10,108 nucleotides of DNA from Escherichia coli. GTDB lineage: Bacteria; Pseudomonadota; Gammaproteobacteria; Enterobacterales; Enterobacteriaceae. A program made the position numbers and the translations under genes. How positions within the stretch are numbered: position 1 is the first letter of the stretch; each line of letters starts with the position of its first letter. Shown piece by piece: positions 1 through 6,044 of this stretch. The stretch lies in assembly GCF_003334335.1 (NCBI RefSeq), contig NZ_QOWQ01000065.1. One strand, given 5' to 3'. The notes under the pieces were generated by a model, which was not told the origin of the DNA, ran no database searches, and saw only the letters and a program-made list of their open reading frames with translations.

Positions 1-1015
1 TCTGTACCCAGGTGGTGAACGGACTGTACGCCGTCCAGATATGGAATGTGATGGAGCGCGGCGGCGGAATTTCATTATCCGCGGCGCTGAAAAATGTCAG
101 ACCGTCACGAGTCCACATGCCCGTGTTTTCACAGATCCACCGCCCGTTACTCTGGTCAAGCTCAGACTGATGGATCACACAGCCATGATGCTCACAAAGG
201 TAGAAAACACTTTCTGGCTTATTCTTCTCCCACTTAAGACCGAAAGGCGAGGCATCATCGCCAAATTTCAGATACTGCTCCTCCCCACAGTGCGGACAGG
301 GCACATAAAAACGCATGAAATGTGCCGACTCGTTAGCGGCTTTTTCGATCTGGCAGGAGCCTTTGATTTTAGGCGTCGAGCCGCGAATGGATTTTGGCCA
401 TACCGAGCCCTCAATACGTTTATCCCCCAGCAGGGTTGGCGAACCCTCTTTTTCAACATCCGGTTCGAACGAGGAAAGCTCGTCATAACAAACCACATCC
501 ACGGATTTTTCACGGTAGTTTTTTGCTGCCGCTCCCCCCAGACACCAGAAACCCACACCGGAGGAAAAACGCTTCAGGGTGAGCGTATTATCGCGGTGTT
601 TTCTTCCGAACCATGGAGCCAGCTCCAGCAATGCAGGAACATCCCTTATCGTTGGCTCAACATGAGATTTCATAAAATCTTCAGCAGCTGAGTCCGTGGG
701 CTGAAAAAGAAGGCTGTTGCGTGATTTATGCTCAATAAAATAAGCCTCCACTCCCAGCAACATCTTTGTATAACCAACACGGGCAGATTTAATCAGGTTA
801 ACAGTGCGAATCAAATCGTTGCCCATACAGTTCATGATGCCAACCTGAAACGGCAGTGTTTCCCACCGCCCCGGGGTATAAGACGACTCTTTAGGAAGGT
901 AATAATGTTTATTGGCCCACTGAACTGTCGTCAGTGGAACAGGAATAATGAGAGATAAAAGCCCTGTAGCTATCGCACCGGCTGCATTAGCTGCCTTCTG
1001 TGCGTCTGAAATCAT
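1..1015 (-). CDS. A: Terminase large subunit (lambda gpA-like), partial: N-terminal ~338 codons, C-terminus beyond left edge
   Basis: Minus-strand frame is open from the ATG at 1015 to the window edge, so it has no in-window stop and is missing from the ORF track. My translation reads [13 protein letters not shown]...[27 protein letters not shown]...[14 protein letters not shown]...[16 protein letters not shown] recognise this as closely matching the N-terminal ATPase region of phage lambda gpA (recalled motifs ...VEWADANYYLPKES..., ...KSARVGYSKMLLGV..., ...[14 protein letters not shown]). The start overlaps the nu1 3' end by 29 nt, as in lambda. Confidence 0.9.
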
Positions 1016-1535
1016 CGATCCACCCGCCCACGTTTTCACCGGCCTTAGCTGCAACATTGGAGGCTTTCGCGATTTCAGTTTTCACCACATCAAGGTGTGA
1101 TGGTGAAATGTCCGGATATTTACGCTGTAATGTCAACGGCACACGCACAAGTATCCCCGAAATCTCCTGTGCCACACGTTGCAGAATGAAGGTAAACAGT
1201 TCAGTTTCCAGCACCACTCCGTCTTCACGGGCATTTTTCAGTTCCTGCGCATCTGCCTGCGCTTTTGTGAGCCGGTAGCGTTCATAGTCAATGGTGCCGG
1301 GTTGTAAATCTGACTCCGCTGCCGCACGCAAATCGGCCAGTTCTTTGCGGAGCTTTTCGTTTTCGATATCAGTTTCCCTCTGCGCATACCACTGAATTGC
1401 CATGGCAGTATCAAATACAGATTCAATGCCCTTACTGCCTTTGGAGACGCAAGGGAGCCCCTGAGACTGCCAGCGTTCAATCGTCCGCGGGTCCACGTTA
1501 AAAATTTCGGCAAGCCTCTTTTTATTAACCTTCAT
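987..1535 (-). CDS. nu1: Terminase small subunit (lambda Nu1-like)
   Basis: Track ORF 987..1559 (-). Protein shows an N-terminal winged-HTH-like segment ([24 protein letters not shown]), a P-loop-like GSKG, and ...[29 protein letters not shown]..., all recalled from lambda Nu1 (MEVNKKQLADIF...). Start chosen at the conserved MKVNKK (ATG at 1535); the track's upstream start at 1559 is possible but less likely. Confidence 0.9.
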
Positions 1536-1559
1536 AGAACAACCCATTATCAAATACAA

Positions 1560-1705
1560 GGCCCGACATGAAAACGCCAGAAAAAGGCATTTTCGGACAC
1601 TTTCATGTCGGACATTTATGAATGCAATATTAAAAAAAACAAAAAGTTATATTCGAGAAGTACCGACACGATTTTCCCTGAAAAATTTTCATAAATAGTG
1701 AAAAA
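1560..1705 (-). promoter_or_regulatory. cosB-like region (putative Nu1-binding R sites) between cosN and nu1
   Basis: Contains repeated and inverted copies of a GTCCGACATGAAAG / TTTCATGTCGG / GTGTCCGAAAA / GTGTCGGTAC motif family between cosN and the nu1 start. Position and repeat character match lambda cosB. Individual site boundaries are not resolved. Confidence 0.5.
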
Positions 1706-1710
1706 CCGCG

Positions 1711-1722
1711 AGGTCGCCGCCC
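1711..1722 (-). other. cosN cohesive-end site (12-nt GGGCGGCGACCT on the minus strand)
   Basis: Plus strand 1711..1722 is AGGTCGCCGCCC, the reverse complement of GGGCGGCGACCT, the lambda 12-nt cohesive end as I recall it. The minus strand continues ...CTCGCGGTTTTTCACTATTTATGAAAATTTTTC, nearly identical to the first ~45 nt of the lambda left end. It sits ~175 nt upstream of the nu1 start, the expected cos-Nu1 spacing. Confidence 0.8.
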
Positions 1723-1945
1723 CGTAACGGTCTGGATCACCGGAAAGGACCCGCCAACGACTTTCGCGTGCAGGCATTAAAAATTTTGCAGTTCCATGCC
1801 TAGTTGAAACCTCGATTTCTATAACATCCAATTTTGTAAATTTAGATATAGCTCAACTTTTCCCAATGTTTTCAAGTGTATAAAAACAATTGGCGTTACG
1901 CCATAACACTATACTTAGGATAAGTAAAGATTTTAAGGAGTTTTA

Positions 1946-3013
1946 ATGAGTCAACATCAATATTATCCACAGCTGAAATGGAAGCCTGCTGAATATGAAT
2001 CTCTGATGCTTTTAGATCAAACTACGCTCTCTGGTTTTACTCCGATCATTACCATTCCAGACATAGACTGGGATTATGAAAACGAATGCTACAAGAAGAG
2101 TTTGAGTTCTTACTTATCTGACTTCGGTATTAACCTTGCGGCATCCTGGAAAGCCAATCGTCCTGTTTTGCTGGATGTTAAATATTTAGATAAACATGGT
2201 TCGAGCCGCCATCATCCTCTAGATATGTGTATCCAAGATGCTAGAGTAAATGGTAAGGAAATTATCCCTGTTGTTTCTCCCGCATATTCAACAAACTATA
2301 TACATGCTGTTCAACGCAACTTAATCAATGGGCTCGCTATATCTATCCCCCCCCAGACATGGCACCAATTCACAAGTCTGGTTAACCACTTAAATATTCA
2401 TCCTAGTTTAATTGATGTAATCATTGATTTTGGAGATATTCAAAACGCAACTGATAGTTTAAAACAACAAGCATTAAGCATGGTCAACACATTATCAGGC
2501 CAAGCTCCGTGGAGAAACTTGATTTTATCTTCAACCGCATACCCAGCATCACAGGCAGGGATACCGCAACATCAAGTTCATCATATTCCGCGCCATGAAT
2601 ACGATCTTTGGATGTACGTAGTACAGAATTTTAGCAATGGAAGAACGCCAAGTTTTAGTGATTATCCCACCGCTAGCTCTACCATTACGAGCGTAGACCC
2701 ACGCTTCATGTCTCAGTATGTCTCAGTGAGATATTCGAACGATACCTCATGGATCTTTGTAAAAGGTACCGCAGTTAAAGGAAATGGATGGGGCCAAACT
2801 AAAAACTTATGTACTACCCTTGTTAGTTCGCCAGAGTATCAAGTCTTTGGTTCCAAATTTAGTTGGGGGGATGATTACATTTACCAAAGATCATTAGGCG
2901 CTAACAAATCTGGCGGCTCTAAAGAATGGCGTAAAGTTGCACATACGCACCATATTACGTTAGTCGTGAGACAGCTTTATTGGTTGGCGCAGACTCAGCC
3001 TGCCAAGCCTTAA
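1946..3013 (+). CDS. Hypothetical protein, 355 aa, cargo-island gene 1 (function unknown)
   Basis: Longest plus-strand ORF in the window. Strong SD (TAAGGAG at 1934..1940) about 5 nt before the ATG at 1946. Possible -10 TATACT at 1910..1915. Markedly A+T-rich codon usage compared with flanking phage genes. No motif I can assign to a known family. Confidence 0.75.
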   Translation: MSQHQYYPQLKWKPAEYESLMLLDQTTLSGFTPIITIPDIDWDYENECYKKSLSSYLSDFGINLAASWKANRPVLLDVKYLDKHGSSRHHPLDMCIQDARVNGKEIIPVVSPAYSTNYIHAVQRNLINGLAISIPPQTWHQFTSLVNHLNIHPSLIDVIIDFGDIQNATDSLKQQALSMVNTLSGQAPWRNLILSSTAYPASQAGIPQHQVHHIPRHEYDLWMYVVQNFSNGRTPSFSDYPTASSTITSVDPRFMSQYVSVRYSNDTSWIFVKGTAVKGNGWGQTKNLCTTLVSSPEYQVFGSKFSWGDDYIYQRSLGANKSGGSKEWRKVAHTHHITLVVRQLYWLAQTQPAKP

Positions 3014-3575
3014 CTTTCCAGCCTACGCGTTTCTTTAAGGCTGTTCTGACTTCAAGCCTGAGATTCGCTATTGGAATATTTTCCGCAATAATATTCCATA
3101 ACTCAAATCGGGGCTTGCTTTTGATTCCTTTGGAATAGCCCCATCGTTCAAGTACGTCGATACATTCATCTTTCCAAAGCAATTGAGCGAGCATCAATGT
3201 GTCATGGTTTCGATTAAGCTTTTCTCCACGCATGTGCTTTATAAGAATGGCGCCTTTTGGCCCAACAGAAACCGTTTTAACGCCCCACCAACCTGGGATT
3301 AACTTTAATGCTCCCTCAAGATGTTTCTCAGCTACGACAAGAGTAACCTTGTCCATTACAGAAGAATAATGCTTGATTTGAAGAGGCAAACGCTCCAAAG
3401 AGTCATATTCACTTTTGAGCTCGTACCCGTGTATAACACCATTTATTACAGCAATGTCTGCTCTACTGGCGCCAAGGGATATGGAAAATTCATCGACCAC
3501 AAGGCAGTCTGGATCTAAATGCGATTCTTTCAAAAGCTTATGATGCACCGCGAACCTAACATCTTGATCTTTCAT
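2955..3575 (-). CDS. Hypothetical protein, 206 aa, with PD-(D/E)xK-like nuclease motif; cargo-island gene 2
   Basis: Minus ORF with strong SD (AAGGAG, 5-nt spacer) before the ATG at 3575. N-terminal region VVDEFSISLGASRADIAVINGVIHGYELKSEYD has the E ... hD ... hExK spacing typical of the restriction-endonuclease-like (PD-(D/E)xK) fold. A+T-rich. Convergent with, and overlapping by 59 nt, the 355-aa gene. Confidence 0.75.
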   Translation of the reverse strand: MKDQDVRFAVHHKLLKESHLDPDCLVVDEFSISLGASRADIAVINGVIHGYELKSEYDSLERLPLQIKHYSSVMDKVTLVVAEKHLEGALKLIPGWWGVKTVSVGPKGAILIKHMRGEKLNRNHDTLMLAQLLWKDECIDVLERWGYSKGIKSKPRFELWNIIAENIPIANLRLEVRTALKKRVGWKVKAWQAESAPTNKAVSRLT

Positions 3576-3925
3576 GACTTCTCCTTACTCCCTCCGTTAT
3601 TGAATTATAGCGCACTGCATTTTACTGCATTTGAGAGATTTGACCACTTCAATCACAAAATGCTTATCTGCAGCAACAAGATTCATAGCCATACGACTAT
3701 GGTGATTACCTTTTGTCTGGAAAACTGACCATTCCACGAAGATCAGATAGGTCTATAGAATCTTGGTTTGTCATAGCGTTCGCCTTACTTTGAGATGAAC
3801 CTTTGCTGCATAGGAGATCAGCCCGTCAAGGCTCACCAGCACTAACTGACTACTCAAAGGCTCATTCCAAAGGGTTTGGTTCGACGTGGTTGAGTGCACT
3901 GCGGTGCGCGGTGAAATACCTGTAC

Positions 3926-3954
3926 AAAAATGCCCCGCATCTGCGAGGCATTTT
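3926..3954 (-). terminator. Intrinsic terminator-like hairpin downstream of Rz/Rz1
   Basis: AAAAATGCC-CCGCATCTGCGA-GGCATTTT: perfect 8-bp stem with the A-run on the plus side, so the minus-strand RNA has the stem followed by a U-run. Lies 38 nt past the Rz stop at 3992. Confidence 0.5.
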
Positions 3955-3991
3955 CCTGAAAGTCACGTATTAAATTTCAGTGAAATTAAAA

Positions 3992-4429
3992 TTATTTTAA
4001 GCACTGCGTCCTGATGTACTCCTGCAGGTAGTTGACCTGCGCGGTTATCTTGTCGATTCCACTTCGGAGACGGTAATAATTGAGTTCAGCATCTGCTGTA
4101 AGTCTTGGGCTTTCTCCATTGCCCATGCCGCTGGCTCCGGTCGTTGACTTTGCACAGGTAGCGGCGACTTGCAGGCGCTTACGCCCAGCAGAAACATCAG
4201 CACGGAGGCTTTCGATAGTCGCGTTAGCATCAGCAAGCTCCTTTGTATATCTGGCATCGAGTTCTGCTACGTCACGTTGACGCTTCTGCATATCAGCGAT
4301 TGTGGATGTGGCTTTATCGCGCTGCTCTTTGTAGGTTATGGCGTTATCACGGTAATGATTCAGCCCCAGACTAAGCGCACCACAGGCCACCAGCAGGGCA
4401 ATGATGACCACGCACAGTACGCGGTTCAT
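3992..4429 (-). CDS. Rz: Rz, i-spanin (inner-membrane spanin subunit)
   Basis: 145-aa ORF with N-terminal TM segment (VLCVVIIALLVACGALSL) followed by NHYRDNAITYKEQRDK..., periplasmic coiled-coil-like region and C-terminal ...NYLQEYIRTQC. Matches lambda Rz as I recall it (…VNHYRDNAITYKAQRDK…). Confidence 0.9.
   Translation of the reverse strand: MNRVLCVVIIALLVACGALSLGLNHYRDNAITYKEQRDKATSTIADMQKRQRDVAELDARYTKELADANATIESLRADVSAGRKRLQVAATCAKSTTGASGMGNGESPRLTADAELNYYRLRSGIDKITAQVNYLQEYIRTQCLK
4045..4230 (-). CDS. Rz1: Rz1, o-spanin lipoprotein, embedded in +1 frame of Rz
   Basis: ORF wholly inside Rz in another frame. From the ATG at 4230 (preceded by AGGAG with 7-nt spacer): MLTRLSKASVLMFLLGVSAC-KSPLPVQSQRPEPAAW..., i.e. 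signal peptide, lipobox-like VSAC, then a Pro-rich mature part. The track's upstream ATG at 4257 is an alternative start. Confidence 0.8.
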   Translation of the reverse strand: MLTRLSKASVLMFLLGVSACKSPLPVQSQRPEPAAWAMEKAQDLQQMLNSIITVSEVESTR

Positions 4430-4430
4430 T

Positions 4431-4529
4431 TCACCACCAGCGTATCTGACCGATGAAATAACCGGAGGCCATAATCACAAACACCAGCCAGATAAGAATG
4501 AACTTCCAGGTGGATAATTTTTCAGCCAT
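4431..4529 (-). CDS. Putative small hydrophobic peptide (32 aa) between endolysin and Rz
   Basis: Internal ATG of track ORF 4431..4700, preceded by GGGAG with 9-nt spacer. Product MAEKLSTWKFILIWLVFVIMASGYFIGQIRWW is a single predicted TM helix. The stop is 1 nt before the Rz ATG. The longer 89-codon reading would run through the hairpin at 4605..4637, so the short form is preferred. Coding status unproven. Confidence 0.3.
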   Translation of the reverse strand: MAEKLSTWKFILIWLVFVIMASGYFIGQIRWW

Positions 4530-4604
4530 CACTCGAATCTCCCGAATCAGTTTGCTAAAATCAAACACACTTTCTCCTTTGACTTTTCCGGAGTCAGGAA
4601 ACAC

Positions 4605-4637
4605 AAAACCCCGCTTGCAGCCAACAAACGGGGTTTT
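4605..4637. terminator. Hairpin with flanking A/T runs (bidirectional terminator-like) between endolysin and small ORF
   Basis: AAAACCCCG-(15-nt loop)-CGGGGTTTT, followed by TTTTTACTTTTATTC on the plus strand; the reverse complement is also followed by TTTTGTGTTT. Lies ~90 nt downstream of the endolysin stop on the minus strand. Confidence 0.4.
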
Positions 4638-4727
4638 TACTTTTATTCTCTTAGTTTTTGTCAGTTCGCAGGATTTCGTGTTATCCGTCCGTGTGAGCAA
4701 ACCGCATTTTTCAGCAAAATATTCTGC

Positions 4728-5261
4728 TTATCTGTCAATTCCCCAGCACGCCAGCGCACTCTCCTGGTCGCGACGGGATACCTGACCGTAACAGTTGTTT
4801 GAGCGAATACGGCAGTCTCTGCCACCGTCCTTAATCCACCAGCGAATCGCCTCACACGCTCCCCTGCGATCACCTGCATTAATTCGTTTATAAAACGTCG
4901 ACGGAAAACACTTACCGGGGCCAATGTTGTACGGACAGAATGACGCGATCCCCGCTTTCTGGGGTTCACTCAATGGCACTCTGATGTTTTTCTCCACCCA
5001 TGCCAGCGCCTTATCACGCTCAATGGCGTTAACCCGGTCGCATTTTTCCTTCGACAACTTCATGCCCGGAACGACAGGTTTGCCATCCACCAGGATGGCA
5101 CCGCGGCAGATGGTCCAGATACCCGCGCCATCACGGTATGCCGTGGTGTGGTTACCTTCCTTTTCATCCAGAAACTGGTCGAGAATGTCAGGCGCAGGCG
5201 CACCAGCGGCAATCAGCGCCAGAACGGCAGCCGACAGGCCGTATCTGATTTTTGCGTTCAT
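4728..5261 (-). CDS. R: Phage endolysin, T4-lysozyme-like (GH24), probable SAR-type
   Basis: 177-aa ORF. Catalytic E-x8-D-x5-T motif (EGNHTTAYRDGAGIWT). N-terminal Gly/Ala-rich weakly hydrophobic segment (YGLSAAVLALIAAGAPAP) typical of signal-anchor-release endolysins. Resembles phage 21 R / E. coli Qin-prophage lysozyme as I recall them. Confidence 0.9.
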   Translation of the reverse strand: MNAKIRYGLSAAVLALIAAGAPAPDILDQFLDEKEGNHTTAYRDGAGIWTICRGAILVDGKPVVPGMKLSKEKCDRVNAIERDKALAWVEKNIRVPLSEPQKAGIASFCPYNIGPGKCFPSTFYKRINAGDRRGACEAIRWWIKDGGRDCRIRSNNCYGQVSRRDQESALACWGIDR

Positions 5262-5324
5262 GGATATTTATCAGGATTTATCGGTTTCTGCCCACGGACA
5301 GGTTTATCTGTTCCGGTCAGTGAC

Positions 5325-5675
5325 TTAAGGTTGTGATTCCGGAGGAGTCTTCAGAGAACCAGTAATTCTTCCCGGTAGCTTTCCTTTGTAGGTTATCCAT
5401 ACATTCTGCGCCTCTAAAATTACGGGGCGCTTTTCCGGCGACTGCTCATCCCCTTCACATAACCCGGCAGCAACATCCAGGAAGACCTGTCTGATGCTCC
5501 TTCTGGCTGCTGCCTCATAAAACTCCAGCGCGGCACCTTCAACACGGTCCAGCGAGATGTCCAGGTCAAAAATTTCACCGTCAAAGCGTTTTTTGTCCCG
5601 TAACGCTAAAGTTACCGTAACTTTATTCTCAAAATTGCGGATCCCTTTCACAATCAGTTTATAGTTTTGAGTCAT
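5325..5675 (-). CDS. Hypothetical protein, 116 aa, likely DUF1327 (YdfR-like), between holin and endolysin
   Basis: Soluble, acidic ORF (MTQNYKLIVKGIRNFENKVTVTLALRDKKRFDGEIFDLDISLDRVEGAALEFYEAAARRS...). Starts 4 nt after the holin stop, with GGGGAGAG upstream. Same position as ydfR in the K-12 Qin lysis cassette (essQ-ydfR-rrrQ). Family assignment is from memory, not a search. Confidence 0.65.
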   Translation of the reverse strand: MTQNYKLIVKGIRNFENKVTVTLALRDKKRFDGEIFDLDISLDRVEGAALEFYEAAARRSIRQVFLDVAAGLCEGDEQSPEKRPVILEAQNVWITYKGKLPGRITGSLKTPPESQP

Positions 5676-5679
5676 TGAA

Positions 5680-5895
5680 TTACTCTCCCCGTGCAGCCTT
5701 ACGACGGTCCTCTCTGATTTTGAAATACAGGTTAGTCAGATATGTCAGCAGCCCAAACAGCAGACTCCCCAGCACGCCTATTGCCGCCCACTGAGACGGG
5801 GAAACCCTGTCCAGCAACTGCAGGAACCAGTAGCCCGTTCCCACCGCTGACGTGGTGTATGACACACCTGTTGTGATTTTTTCCATCTGGTACAT
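5680..5895 (-). CDS. S: Class II holin, phage-21 S-like pinholin with dual start
   Basis: From the ATG at 5895: [71 protein letters not shown] (71 aa). Near-identical in pattern to phage 21 S (MKSMDKISTG...[24 protein letters not shown]...[21 protein letters not shown]). Two in-frame Met codons 3 codons apart give the antiholin/holin dual-start arrangement. GGAG lies 7 nt upstream. The track's longer 106-codon ORF to 6000 is probably read-through of upstream sequence. Confidence 0.85.
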
Positions 5896-6044
5896 ACCCC
5901 GTCTCCCGTTATCCGGAAGCTGACAACAATAAAAAAGCCACCAGTTAAGTACTGATGGCTCTGATAACTCATGCAGGCGTCTCAGACGACCCACTGACAC
6001 TACCGGTGAGTTTAACGATACCTTCCATTTGACTGGCTCACTTT

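Follow-up and report, generated by a model that had tools for sequence, protein, structure and literature searches.

Convergent beta and cII genes with overlapping 3′ ends in a prophage region of Escherichia coli

In a 10,108-nucleotide (nt) stretch of an Escherichia coli genome (contig NZ_QOWQ01000065.1 of RefSeq assembly GCF_003334335.1; hereafter the window), an open reading frame (ORF) of 355 amino acids (aa) on the plus strand and one of 206 aa on the minus strand converge and share 59 nt at their 3′ ends (Table 1). A previous sequence-only reading of the window had pointed out this overlap and suggested either that it couples the expression of the two genes, as in some toxin-antitoxin and defense pairs, or that one C-terminus had been mis-called. 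Matches to Pfam and NCBIfam families show that both ORFs are true genes and not chance ORFs. The 355-aa protein matches the Pfam family Beta_protein (PF14350, E = 8.7e-56, residues 6-342), and in PADLOC it is recognized better by the PD-Lambda-2_C model (4.2e-32) than by the beta model (PDLC02985, 5.1e-10). The 206-aa protein scores 184.1 bits against NCBIfam sce7726 (NF033832, cutoff 70), with profile positions 1-182 of 184 aligning to its residues 1-183, and matches cll in PADLOC (4.3e-31); the Pfam family Phage_P4_cII (PF26915) was found on its homologues. We refer to the two genes as beta and cII. Membership in the NCBIfam sce7725/sce7726 pair was rejected, as the partner here belongs to the Pfam beta family and has no sce7725 match: the window beta matched nothing in NCBIfam, sce7725 (NF033831) included, at E ≤ 0.01, and six further beta proteins reached at best 15.7 bits against sce7725 (cutoff 60).

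The overlap itself is well established. In E. coli 14EC047, the Prokaryotic Genome Annotation Pipeline (PGAP) calls two coding sequences with identical ends, a ‘beta family protein’ and a ‘sce7726 family protein’, and of 5426 complete E. coli genomes, 127 carry the 1.85-kb region at ≥99% identity, on the chromosome every time, with further matches to the cassette region in about 30 IMG/VR contigs. Since these 127 genomes share the same structure and the same ends, a sequencing error or frameshift in the 206-aa gene, which had been named as a possible cause of the overlap, is excluded.

Structural models place the overlap in different kinds of sequence in the two proteins. The AlphaFold2 model of beta has a mean predicted local distance difference test (pLDDT) score of 94.2 and finds TIM-barrel matches in Foldseek, and beta is predicted to be a TIM-barrel protein with a confident C-terminal helix at residues 325-350; its part of the overlap covers the end of this helix, including the conserved residues V340, Q343 and L344. 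The cII model has a mean pLDDT of 87.7, but residues 188-206, which make up the whole of its overlap segment, fall below 50, lie beyond the family profile and are predicted to be disordered. Foldseek matches of cII to SfsA, tRNA-splicing endonucleases, EndoMS and Can2 are weak (best E 1.9e-3, TM score 0.35); together with D40, E52 and K54, which are invariant among 28 aligned cII sequences, they suggest a PD-(D/E)xK-type nuclease fold. A sequence search of solved structures with the beta and cII proteins returned chance-level matches only.

Comparison with close relatives points to the origin of the 59 nt. Most cII homologues are 188-193 aa long, and conservation stops at W186/K187. The sequence-only reading had proposed homologue alignments as a check on each C-terminus, and the outcome is divided: cII is indeed conserved only to about residue 187 (nt 3015, which lies 2 nt beyond beta), but the nearest homologues still overlap beta by 11 nt. 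In these relatives (80-86% identity; Cronobacter, Enterobacter, Proteus, Providencia and Pectobacterium), cII terminates with WKVRV*, its last residue being 190, and converges with a 355-aa beta; its stop would map to window positions 3003-3005. Base 3004 is the wobble base of beta Ala353, and the DNA alignment at this codon indicates that the cII stop was removed by a single TAG-to-TGG substitution that is silent in beta. The stop was lost independently at least twice, in the window and in a 202-aa Cronobacter variant. The next in-frame cII stop lies 16 codons on, compared to the ~21 expected in random sequence; the 59-nt length is a chance outcome after stop loss, an ordinary by-product, and the disordered C-terminal tail is probably without function. 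The 24 close full-length copies differ at 35 sites; one of these is in the overlap, where 1.1 would be expected, and at none of them is the stop restored. One private non-synonymous substitution of the window copy lies in beta, where position 2348 is C (Pro135) instead of the A (Thr135) found in all 24 other close full-length copies.

The convergent arrangement extends across the family. Our junction survey covered 80 IMG/VR loci, targeted contigs from Acinetobacter, Burkholderia, Pasteurella, an alphaproteobacterial metagenome-assembled genome and two Joint Genome Institute (JGI) metagenomes, and the annotated phages P4, Rac-SA53, Gordonia DumpsterDude and Powerball, and Mycolicibacterium Mycofy1; junction ORFs were assigned by hidden Markov models, and 42 distinct junctions were counted. 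From Proteobacteria to actinophages, beta and cII are convergent in all of them (42/42) and overlap in 39, by 11, 20, 35, 38, 41, 44, 47, 53, 56, 59, 62, 89, 107 or 266 nt. Without exception, these overlap lengths are 2 mod 3. The three junctions with no counted overlap are those of P4 (a 27-nt gap with an annotated terminator) and of two survey loci, L050 (a 14-nt gap) and L042 (a frameshifted beta). We defined the core spacing as the distance from the conserved cII ‘W-R/K’ codon to the conserved beta ‘Q-L’ codon. This spacing equals −2 nt in 18 junctions measured by script and, by hand calculation, in the two Gordonia phages, Mycofy1 and loci L101 and L102, such that enterobacterial Rac-type, Acinetobacter, Burkholderia, alphaproteobacterial and Gordonia/Mycolicibacterium phage loci are all represented; it is +1 in Pasteurella and +37 (−2 + 39) in the clade of the window. 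The −2 nt pattern indicates that an interlocked, dual-coded junction, in which indels are limited to multiples of three, is ancestral, and that the window clade gained a 39-nt spacer, with the overlap re-expanding later through stop loss. This near-universal, phase-locked, tail-to-tail overlap is more interesting than the 59-nt length.

The pairing has a limit. No beta partner was found for the distant sce7726-like genes of Myxococcus phage Mx4, Bacillus phage Edson and the fecal contig MT835757 (those of Mx4 and Edson lie within co-directional operons, and MT835757 is without annotation), so the pairing is not general to the whole sce7726 superfamily. Within it, beta-cII is a clean case from nature of long convergent overlaps kept in a locked phase across phyla, with stop codons that drift via single substitutions silent in the partner gene. 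Such overlaps are useful for the developers of gene callers, which missed cII in DumpsterDude and in Mycofy1 and beta in the metagenomic locus L103, one overlapping gene in each of these three loci. In DumpsterDude (L010, MT024859), the unannotated cII-like gene at 3001-3633 overlaps the convergent beta-like gene by 89 nt, and a small opposite-strand ORF (gene 32) is annotated in its place; in Mycofy1 (L097, PQ356897), the unannotated cII-like gene runs from 2501 to about 3140 and has a 107-nt overlap with the beta-like gene. Both are 42-44% identical to the window protein and were apparently left unannotated because of these overlaps. The gene neighborhoods of the pair also vary. In Acinetobacter and Pasteurella prophages (L091, L092, L094 and L095), beta lies directly 3′ of a co-oriented CI-like repressor gene (HTH_3 plus Peptidase_S24), in the position of lambda rexAB, and cII converges on it, while in actinophages beta is the last gene of the leftward block on the integrase side and cII comes after the lysis genes.

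The window pair appears to be a gop-less relative of the gop-beta-cII anti-phage module of satellite phage P4, and the guess that the two genes form a toxin-antitoxin or defense pair was a good one insofar as they are homologues of P4 beta and cII and beta matches PD-lambda-2_C. P4 beta and cII strongly match the same models as the window proteins, with P4 having an additional match to the gop model; pairwise identity to the window proteins is 22% for beta, which has 355 aa in both, and 27% for cII. As in the window, the P4 genes lie tail to tail (beta 651-1718, plus strand; cII 1746-2540, minus strand) and adjoin a cos site within a hotspot of mobile elements. In contrast to the window genes, they are separated by their 27 nt and terminator, their cII has 264 aa, and their host is a P4-like satellite and not a lambdoid prophage. 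The window cassette also differs in lacking gop: a tblastn search with P4 gop (E ≤ 10) gave no homologue in the window or in roughly 100 related loci, and just 124 nt of cassette lie upstream of beta, on which grounds we rejected the presence of gop there. The P4 system has been validated as a defense against lambda and P1 (Rousset 2022, PMC9122126), and a phage accessory gene triggers it to kill the cell (bioRxiv 10.1101/2023.04.06.535777). The window holds an unflagged gop-less relative of a validated anti-phage system, one that is carried by about 2% of complete E. coli genomes.

A second known system shares beta. PD-lambda-2 consists of a HigB-like A, an Xre-peptidase B and a beta-like C component (Vassallo 2022), and PD-lambda-2C is needed for defense but not for toxin neutralization (PMC9519451). 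Although the window beta scores best on the C model, the window cassette has two ORFs flanked by Rz and cos/Nu1, with no HigB-like or Xre-peptidase gene, and cII is not listed as a PD-lambda-2 component. Locus L103 (JGI metagenome 3300049796, Ga0497424_0000135; 3001-6117) carries a PD-lambda-2-like operon, with HigB_toxin at 5788-6117, Xre/Peptidase_M78 at 4567-5775 and an uncalled beta-like ORF at 3416-4570. Downstream of the beta-like ORF, as in the window, lies a convergent cII (3001-3681) that overlaps it by 266 nt, both proteins having long tails past their conserved ends. This arrangement suggests that cII may be an unrecognized fourth partner of some PD-lambda-2 systems. The pairs of Rac-SA53 (KU052037), Acinetobacter, Pasteurella and Burkholderia prophages and Gordonia phages Powerball and DumpsterDude resemble the window pair as two-gene convergent cassettes with overlapping 3′ ends in the same phase. 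They differ in that their conserved C-terminal codons interlock (−2 nt) and conserved parts are dual-coded, whereas in the window clade, with its 39-nt spacer, only the non-conserved cII tail overlaps beta.

The two genes travel as a unit. Between the window and Cronobacter, Proteus and IMG/VR prophage loci, similarity (72-76% identity) is limited to positions 1822-3681, the flanks being otherwise unrelated, and the mobile unit is therefore a 1.86-kb cassette of two genes only. A megablast search of the cassette against the phage collection gave no match, and a protein-mode search was used instead. Upstream of beta, an alignment of five loci shows a conserved GAT.TAGCTCA..TTTT..GTATAAAA block, with similarity lost farther upstream; a promoter scan and alignment likewise identified a block upstream of cII that is conserved in five loci. 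We infer that these outer-flank blocks are the promoters of beta and cII. The minus-strand order is DNA methyltransferase, three tRNAs, SASA esterase, holin, lysozyme, Rz and cII, followed beyond beta by Nu1. The 12-nt sequence at 1711-1722, which is the lambda cohesive-end sequence, together with the flanking Rz and Nu1 genes, indicates that the pair sits in the moron slot between Rz and cos of a lambdoid prophage.

Table 1. Positions of the beta-cII overlap, its alleles and surrounding features in the window.
Feature	Position	Strand	Details
beta family ORF	1946-3013	+	stop TAA 3011-3013
cII / sce7726 family ORF	2955-3575	−	stop TAA 2957-2955
59-nt convergent overlap	2955-3013	both	beta residues 337-355 and cII residues 188-206
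cII codon 191	3003-3005	−	TGG (Trp) where nearest relatives have a TAG stop; DNA and protein alignments
Same codon, 190-aa relatives	3003-3005	+	CTA; cII TAG stop; beta GCT Ala
Same codon, window	3003-3005	+	CCA; cII TGG Trp; beta GCC Ala
Same codon, 202-aa Cronobacter variant	3003-3005	+	CGA; cII TCG Ser; beta GCG Ala
Lineage-specific 16-codon cII extension, residues 191-206	2958-3005	−	WQAESAPTNKAVSRLT; antisense to beta tail
Mobile two-gene beta-cII cassette	1822-3681		blastn against loci L002, L004, L006, L039, L043, L044, L048
Conserved block upstream of beta	1822-1945	+	promoter-like TGTATAAAA 1877-1885; Shine-Dalgarno AAGGAG 1936-1941
Conserved block upstream of cII	3576-3681	−	promoter-like TGGTCA-16-TAAAAT 3646-3619; TATAAT 3609-3604; Shine-Dalgarno AAGGAG
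cosN, GGGCGGCGACCT	1711-1722	−	single exact match to lambda 12-nt cohesive end; 0.01 expected by chance
Terminase small subunit Nu1	987-1559	−	beyond beta
Rz	3992-4429	−	next to cassette

With regard to transcription, the earlier observation that no terminator separates the genes was borne out. A scan found no intrinsic or bidirectional terminator in or near the overlap, the nearest terminator-like sites being on the minus strand at 3509-3495 (cII 5′ region) and 1903-1891 (beta 5′ leader), and the junction RNA of each strand folds no more stably than shuffled sequence (z −1.0 and +1.1). A hidden bidirectional terminator hairpin in the overlap was rejected on the basis of these results. With outer promoters and no internal terminator, each transcript would be expected to run antisense into the partner gene. 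The arrangement that recurs throughout the family would make convergent transcription an inherent property of the pair. All phage late genes here are on the minus strand and, given established lambda biology, late transcription antiterminated by Q would be in sense for cII and in antisense for beta. Antisense coupling is a property of other convergent pairs, such as lambda cII mRNA and OOP RNA, par fst/RNA II of pAD1 and convergent restriction-modification genes, to which the likeness is one of working only. These also have convergent units with complementary 3′ ends, but they rely on a small antisense RNA, on a bidirectional terminator located in the overlap, or on both, whereas both partners in the window are full-length protein genes with no detectable terminator.

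Two small structures lie at the outer ends of the pair. The beta 5′ leader contains a perfect palindrome, TGGCGTTACGCCA (1891-1903), with the promoter-like TATAAA on one side and the Shine-Dalgarno sequence on the other; a T-rich run follows it on the minus strand, where it has a terminator-like score. It could terminate cII-sense or late transcripts that have already passed antisense through all of beta, or else serve as an operator. The palindrome is not conserved in the Cronobacter and Proteus cassettes, which have a different one, CTTGCAAG. On the other side, a terminator-like hairpin with a weak T run, CATAGTCGTATGGCTATG (3684-3701, minus strand), stands just outside the cassette boundary at 3681 and downstream of Rz, where it could insulate cII from read-through that is not antiterminated.

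We consider it probable (about 0.8) that the overlap is real and inherited as part of a self-contained cassette, in which beta and cII converge from their own promoters, and that this cassette is a gop-less relative of the P4 module carried as an Rz-cos moron, with the 59 nt having arisen through the spacer and then stop loss. This explanation builds on what is shown: the gene identities, the stop loss, the architecture kept across the family and the lack of any terminator or hairpin. Across the family, the two genes almost always converge, and their common 3′ ends keep to a single reading phase; the conserved final structural codons of cII (W-R/K) and beta (Q-L) usually interlock by 2 nt, and the short variable tail of each protein is read from the antisense of the other. 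The window clade acquired its 39-nt spacer, leaving an 11-nt overlap, and in the E. coli lineage the TAG-to-TGG change, silent in beta, then let cII be read 16 codons further, giving the 59-nt overlap and a tail predicted to be disordered. Each gene would be transcribed from its own outer promoter, each RNA running antisense into the other, with cII presumably a nuclease-type effector and beta a sensor or regulator distinct from a classical antitoxin.

Several points weigh against this explanation. Its promoters, 3′ ends and antisense RNA are all deduced from sequence. Downstream of both stops the C/G ratio exceeds 1, which is mildly C-rich and not decisive, and Rho-dependent termination inside the partner gene is possible. 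The nuclease assignment of cII combines a weak fold match with a conserved D...ExK motif. Anti-phage activity has been demonstrated for the three-gene P4 and ECOR59 systems only (PMC9122126; bioRxiv 10.1101/2023.04.06.535777), and the proteins of the three-gene P4 system are only 22-27% identical to the window pair. Lastly, E. coli diversity, with one variable site in the overlap against 1.1 expected, is too low to call the tail neutral or selected.

Other explanations account for parts of these data. If one C-terminus had been mis-called via a frameshift or sequencing error, the true genes would not overlap, and it would follow naturally that the cII family profiles and most cII homologues end at about residue 185-193, short of the 206-aa ORF. 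Such an artefact is extremely improbable given that the same structure recurs in 127 complete genomes and about 30 IMG/VR contigs, that the stop position is set by a frame proven by homology to residue 187, and that even the 190-aa relatives overlap beta by 11 nt. On the strength of the 127-genome survey, the DNA alignment of the stop region and the junction survey we rejected it; the longer cII ORF is, by these alignments, a stop-loss variant fixed in its lineage, and the suspected annotation problem is removed for the window. A second possibility accepts the stop loss but gives it a purpose, with the 16-residue extension being an adaptive C-terminal peptide, for example an interaction or degradation tag, and the longer overlap being selected at the protein level. 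The extension is fixed in 24 of 24 full-length close copies with no re-truncation, and independent stop-loss extensions occur elsewhere (the 202-aa Cronobacter, 206-aa L055 and 226-aa L103 forms), which speaks for such selection. These independent extensions, however, have no mutual sequence similarity, the tail is predicted to be disordered (pLDDT 31-36) with a sequence dictated by the antisense of the structured, conserved beta helix, and the sole tail variant seen (A193D, L031) is also non-synonymous in beta, all of which make an adaptive tail very unlikely.

The relation between the two products raises further alternatives. In a classical type II toxin-antitoxin system, beta would neutralize a toxic cII nuclease and the overlap would ensure their joint inheritance. 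P4 beta is described as neutralizing the toxic gop (Ghisotti 1990, as cited in PMC9122126), the beta-cII pair always travels together and the D40/E52/K54 motif is invariant, but natural beta knock-outs speak against such a system. In strain 100416 (L104, NZ_CM128593.1 2673188-2679237), beta is split by IS5, and in strain RM10410 (L105, NZ_CP042350.1 1403096-1410124) it is cut to its last 140 codons beside IS66/IS2; both retain an intact cII ORF with one common substitution each (L174P and P106S, respectively) and an intact upstream promoter block, identical to that of other copies, and cII is likewise intact beside the frameshifted beta of L042. An antitoxin is not expected to be lost while its toxin stays intact, and the IS5 insertion in NZ_CM128593 and the truncation in NZ_CP042350 depart from that expectation. 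PD-lambda-2C, moreover, is not an antitoxin, and a convergent rather than operonic organization is atypical of type II systems. A simple toxin-antitoxin relation is unlikely, and the knock-outs, in suggesting that beta is not a simple antitoxin, bear on the workings of gop-beta-cII and PD-lambda-2. It is conceivable, if doubtful, that the overlap is instead a regulatory device, with convergent transcription and/or an RNA duplex at the common 3′ ends setting the beta:cII ratio and a disturbance, such as an infecting phage or late prophage transcription, switching the system on. Consistent with this, the convergent orientation leaves no room for a terminator and is conserved in 42/42 junctions across phyla, the overlap is without a terminator, both genes have their own conserved outer promoter-like blocks, and in the window and several prophages cII is co-oriented with late or lytic genes, with beta downstream of repressor or integrase genes. 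Yet the length of the overlap is free to vary (11-266 nt), there are gaps in P4 (27 nt, with a terminator annotated in the record) and in L050 (14 nt), the junction RNA has no conserved or stable structure, and a frozen constraint would account equally well for the conserved phase, since a segment that codes on both strands tolerates indels only in multiples of three. The free variation and the P4 and L050 gaps argue that the 59-nt length itself is without function. A broader and more speculative proposal, which we regard as improbable, is that beta and cII have been obligately convergent and phase-locked since before their proteobacterial and actinophage carriers split, that the antisense arrangement is itself the switch, with head-on transcription or an RNA duplex setting the ratio of cII nuclease to beta sensor, and that infection or Q-antiterminated transcription flips this ratio and fires the system. 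The beta-cII pair is a tractable system in which to ask if a defense module is regulated by convergent transcription.

The prophage around the cassette has features of its own. Three tRNA genes (Arg-tct, Arg-tcg and Met-cat) lie on the minus strand at 8874-9123, between the DNA methyltransferase gene (9173-10102) and the gene for a SASA/NanS-like esterase (6045-7898), a layout typical of Stx-type lambdoid phages; no toxin-sized ORF is present in the ~1 kb between the tRNAs and the esterase (7899-8873). In the best-matching genome, that of E. coli 14EC047 (L001, 3312-4525), an IS3-family element interrupts the adjacent gene for the terminase small subunit, and the gene for the large subunit carries a frameshift; this prophage copy is defective, yet its beta-cII cassette is intact.

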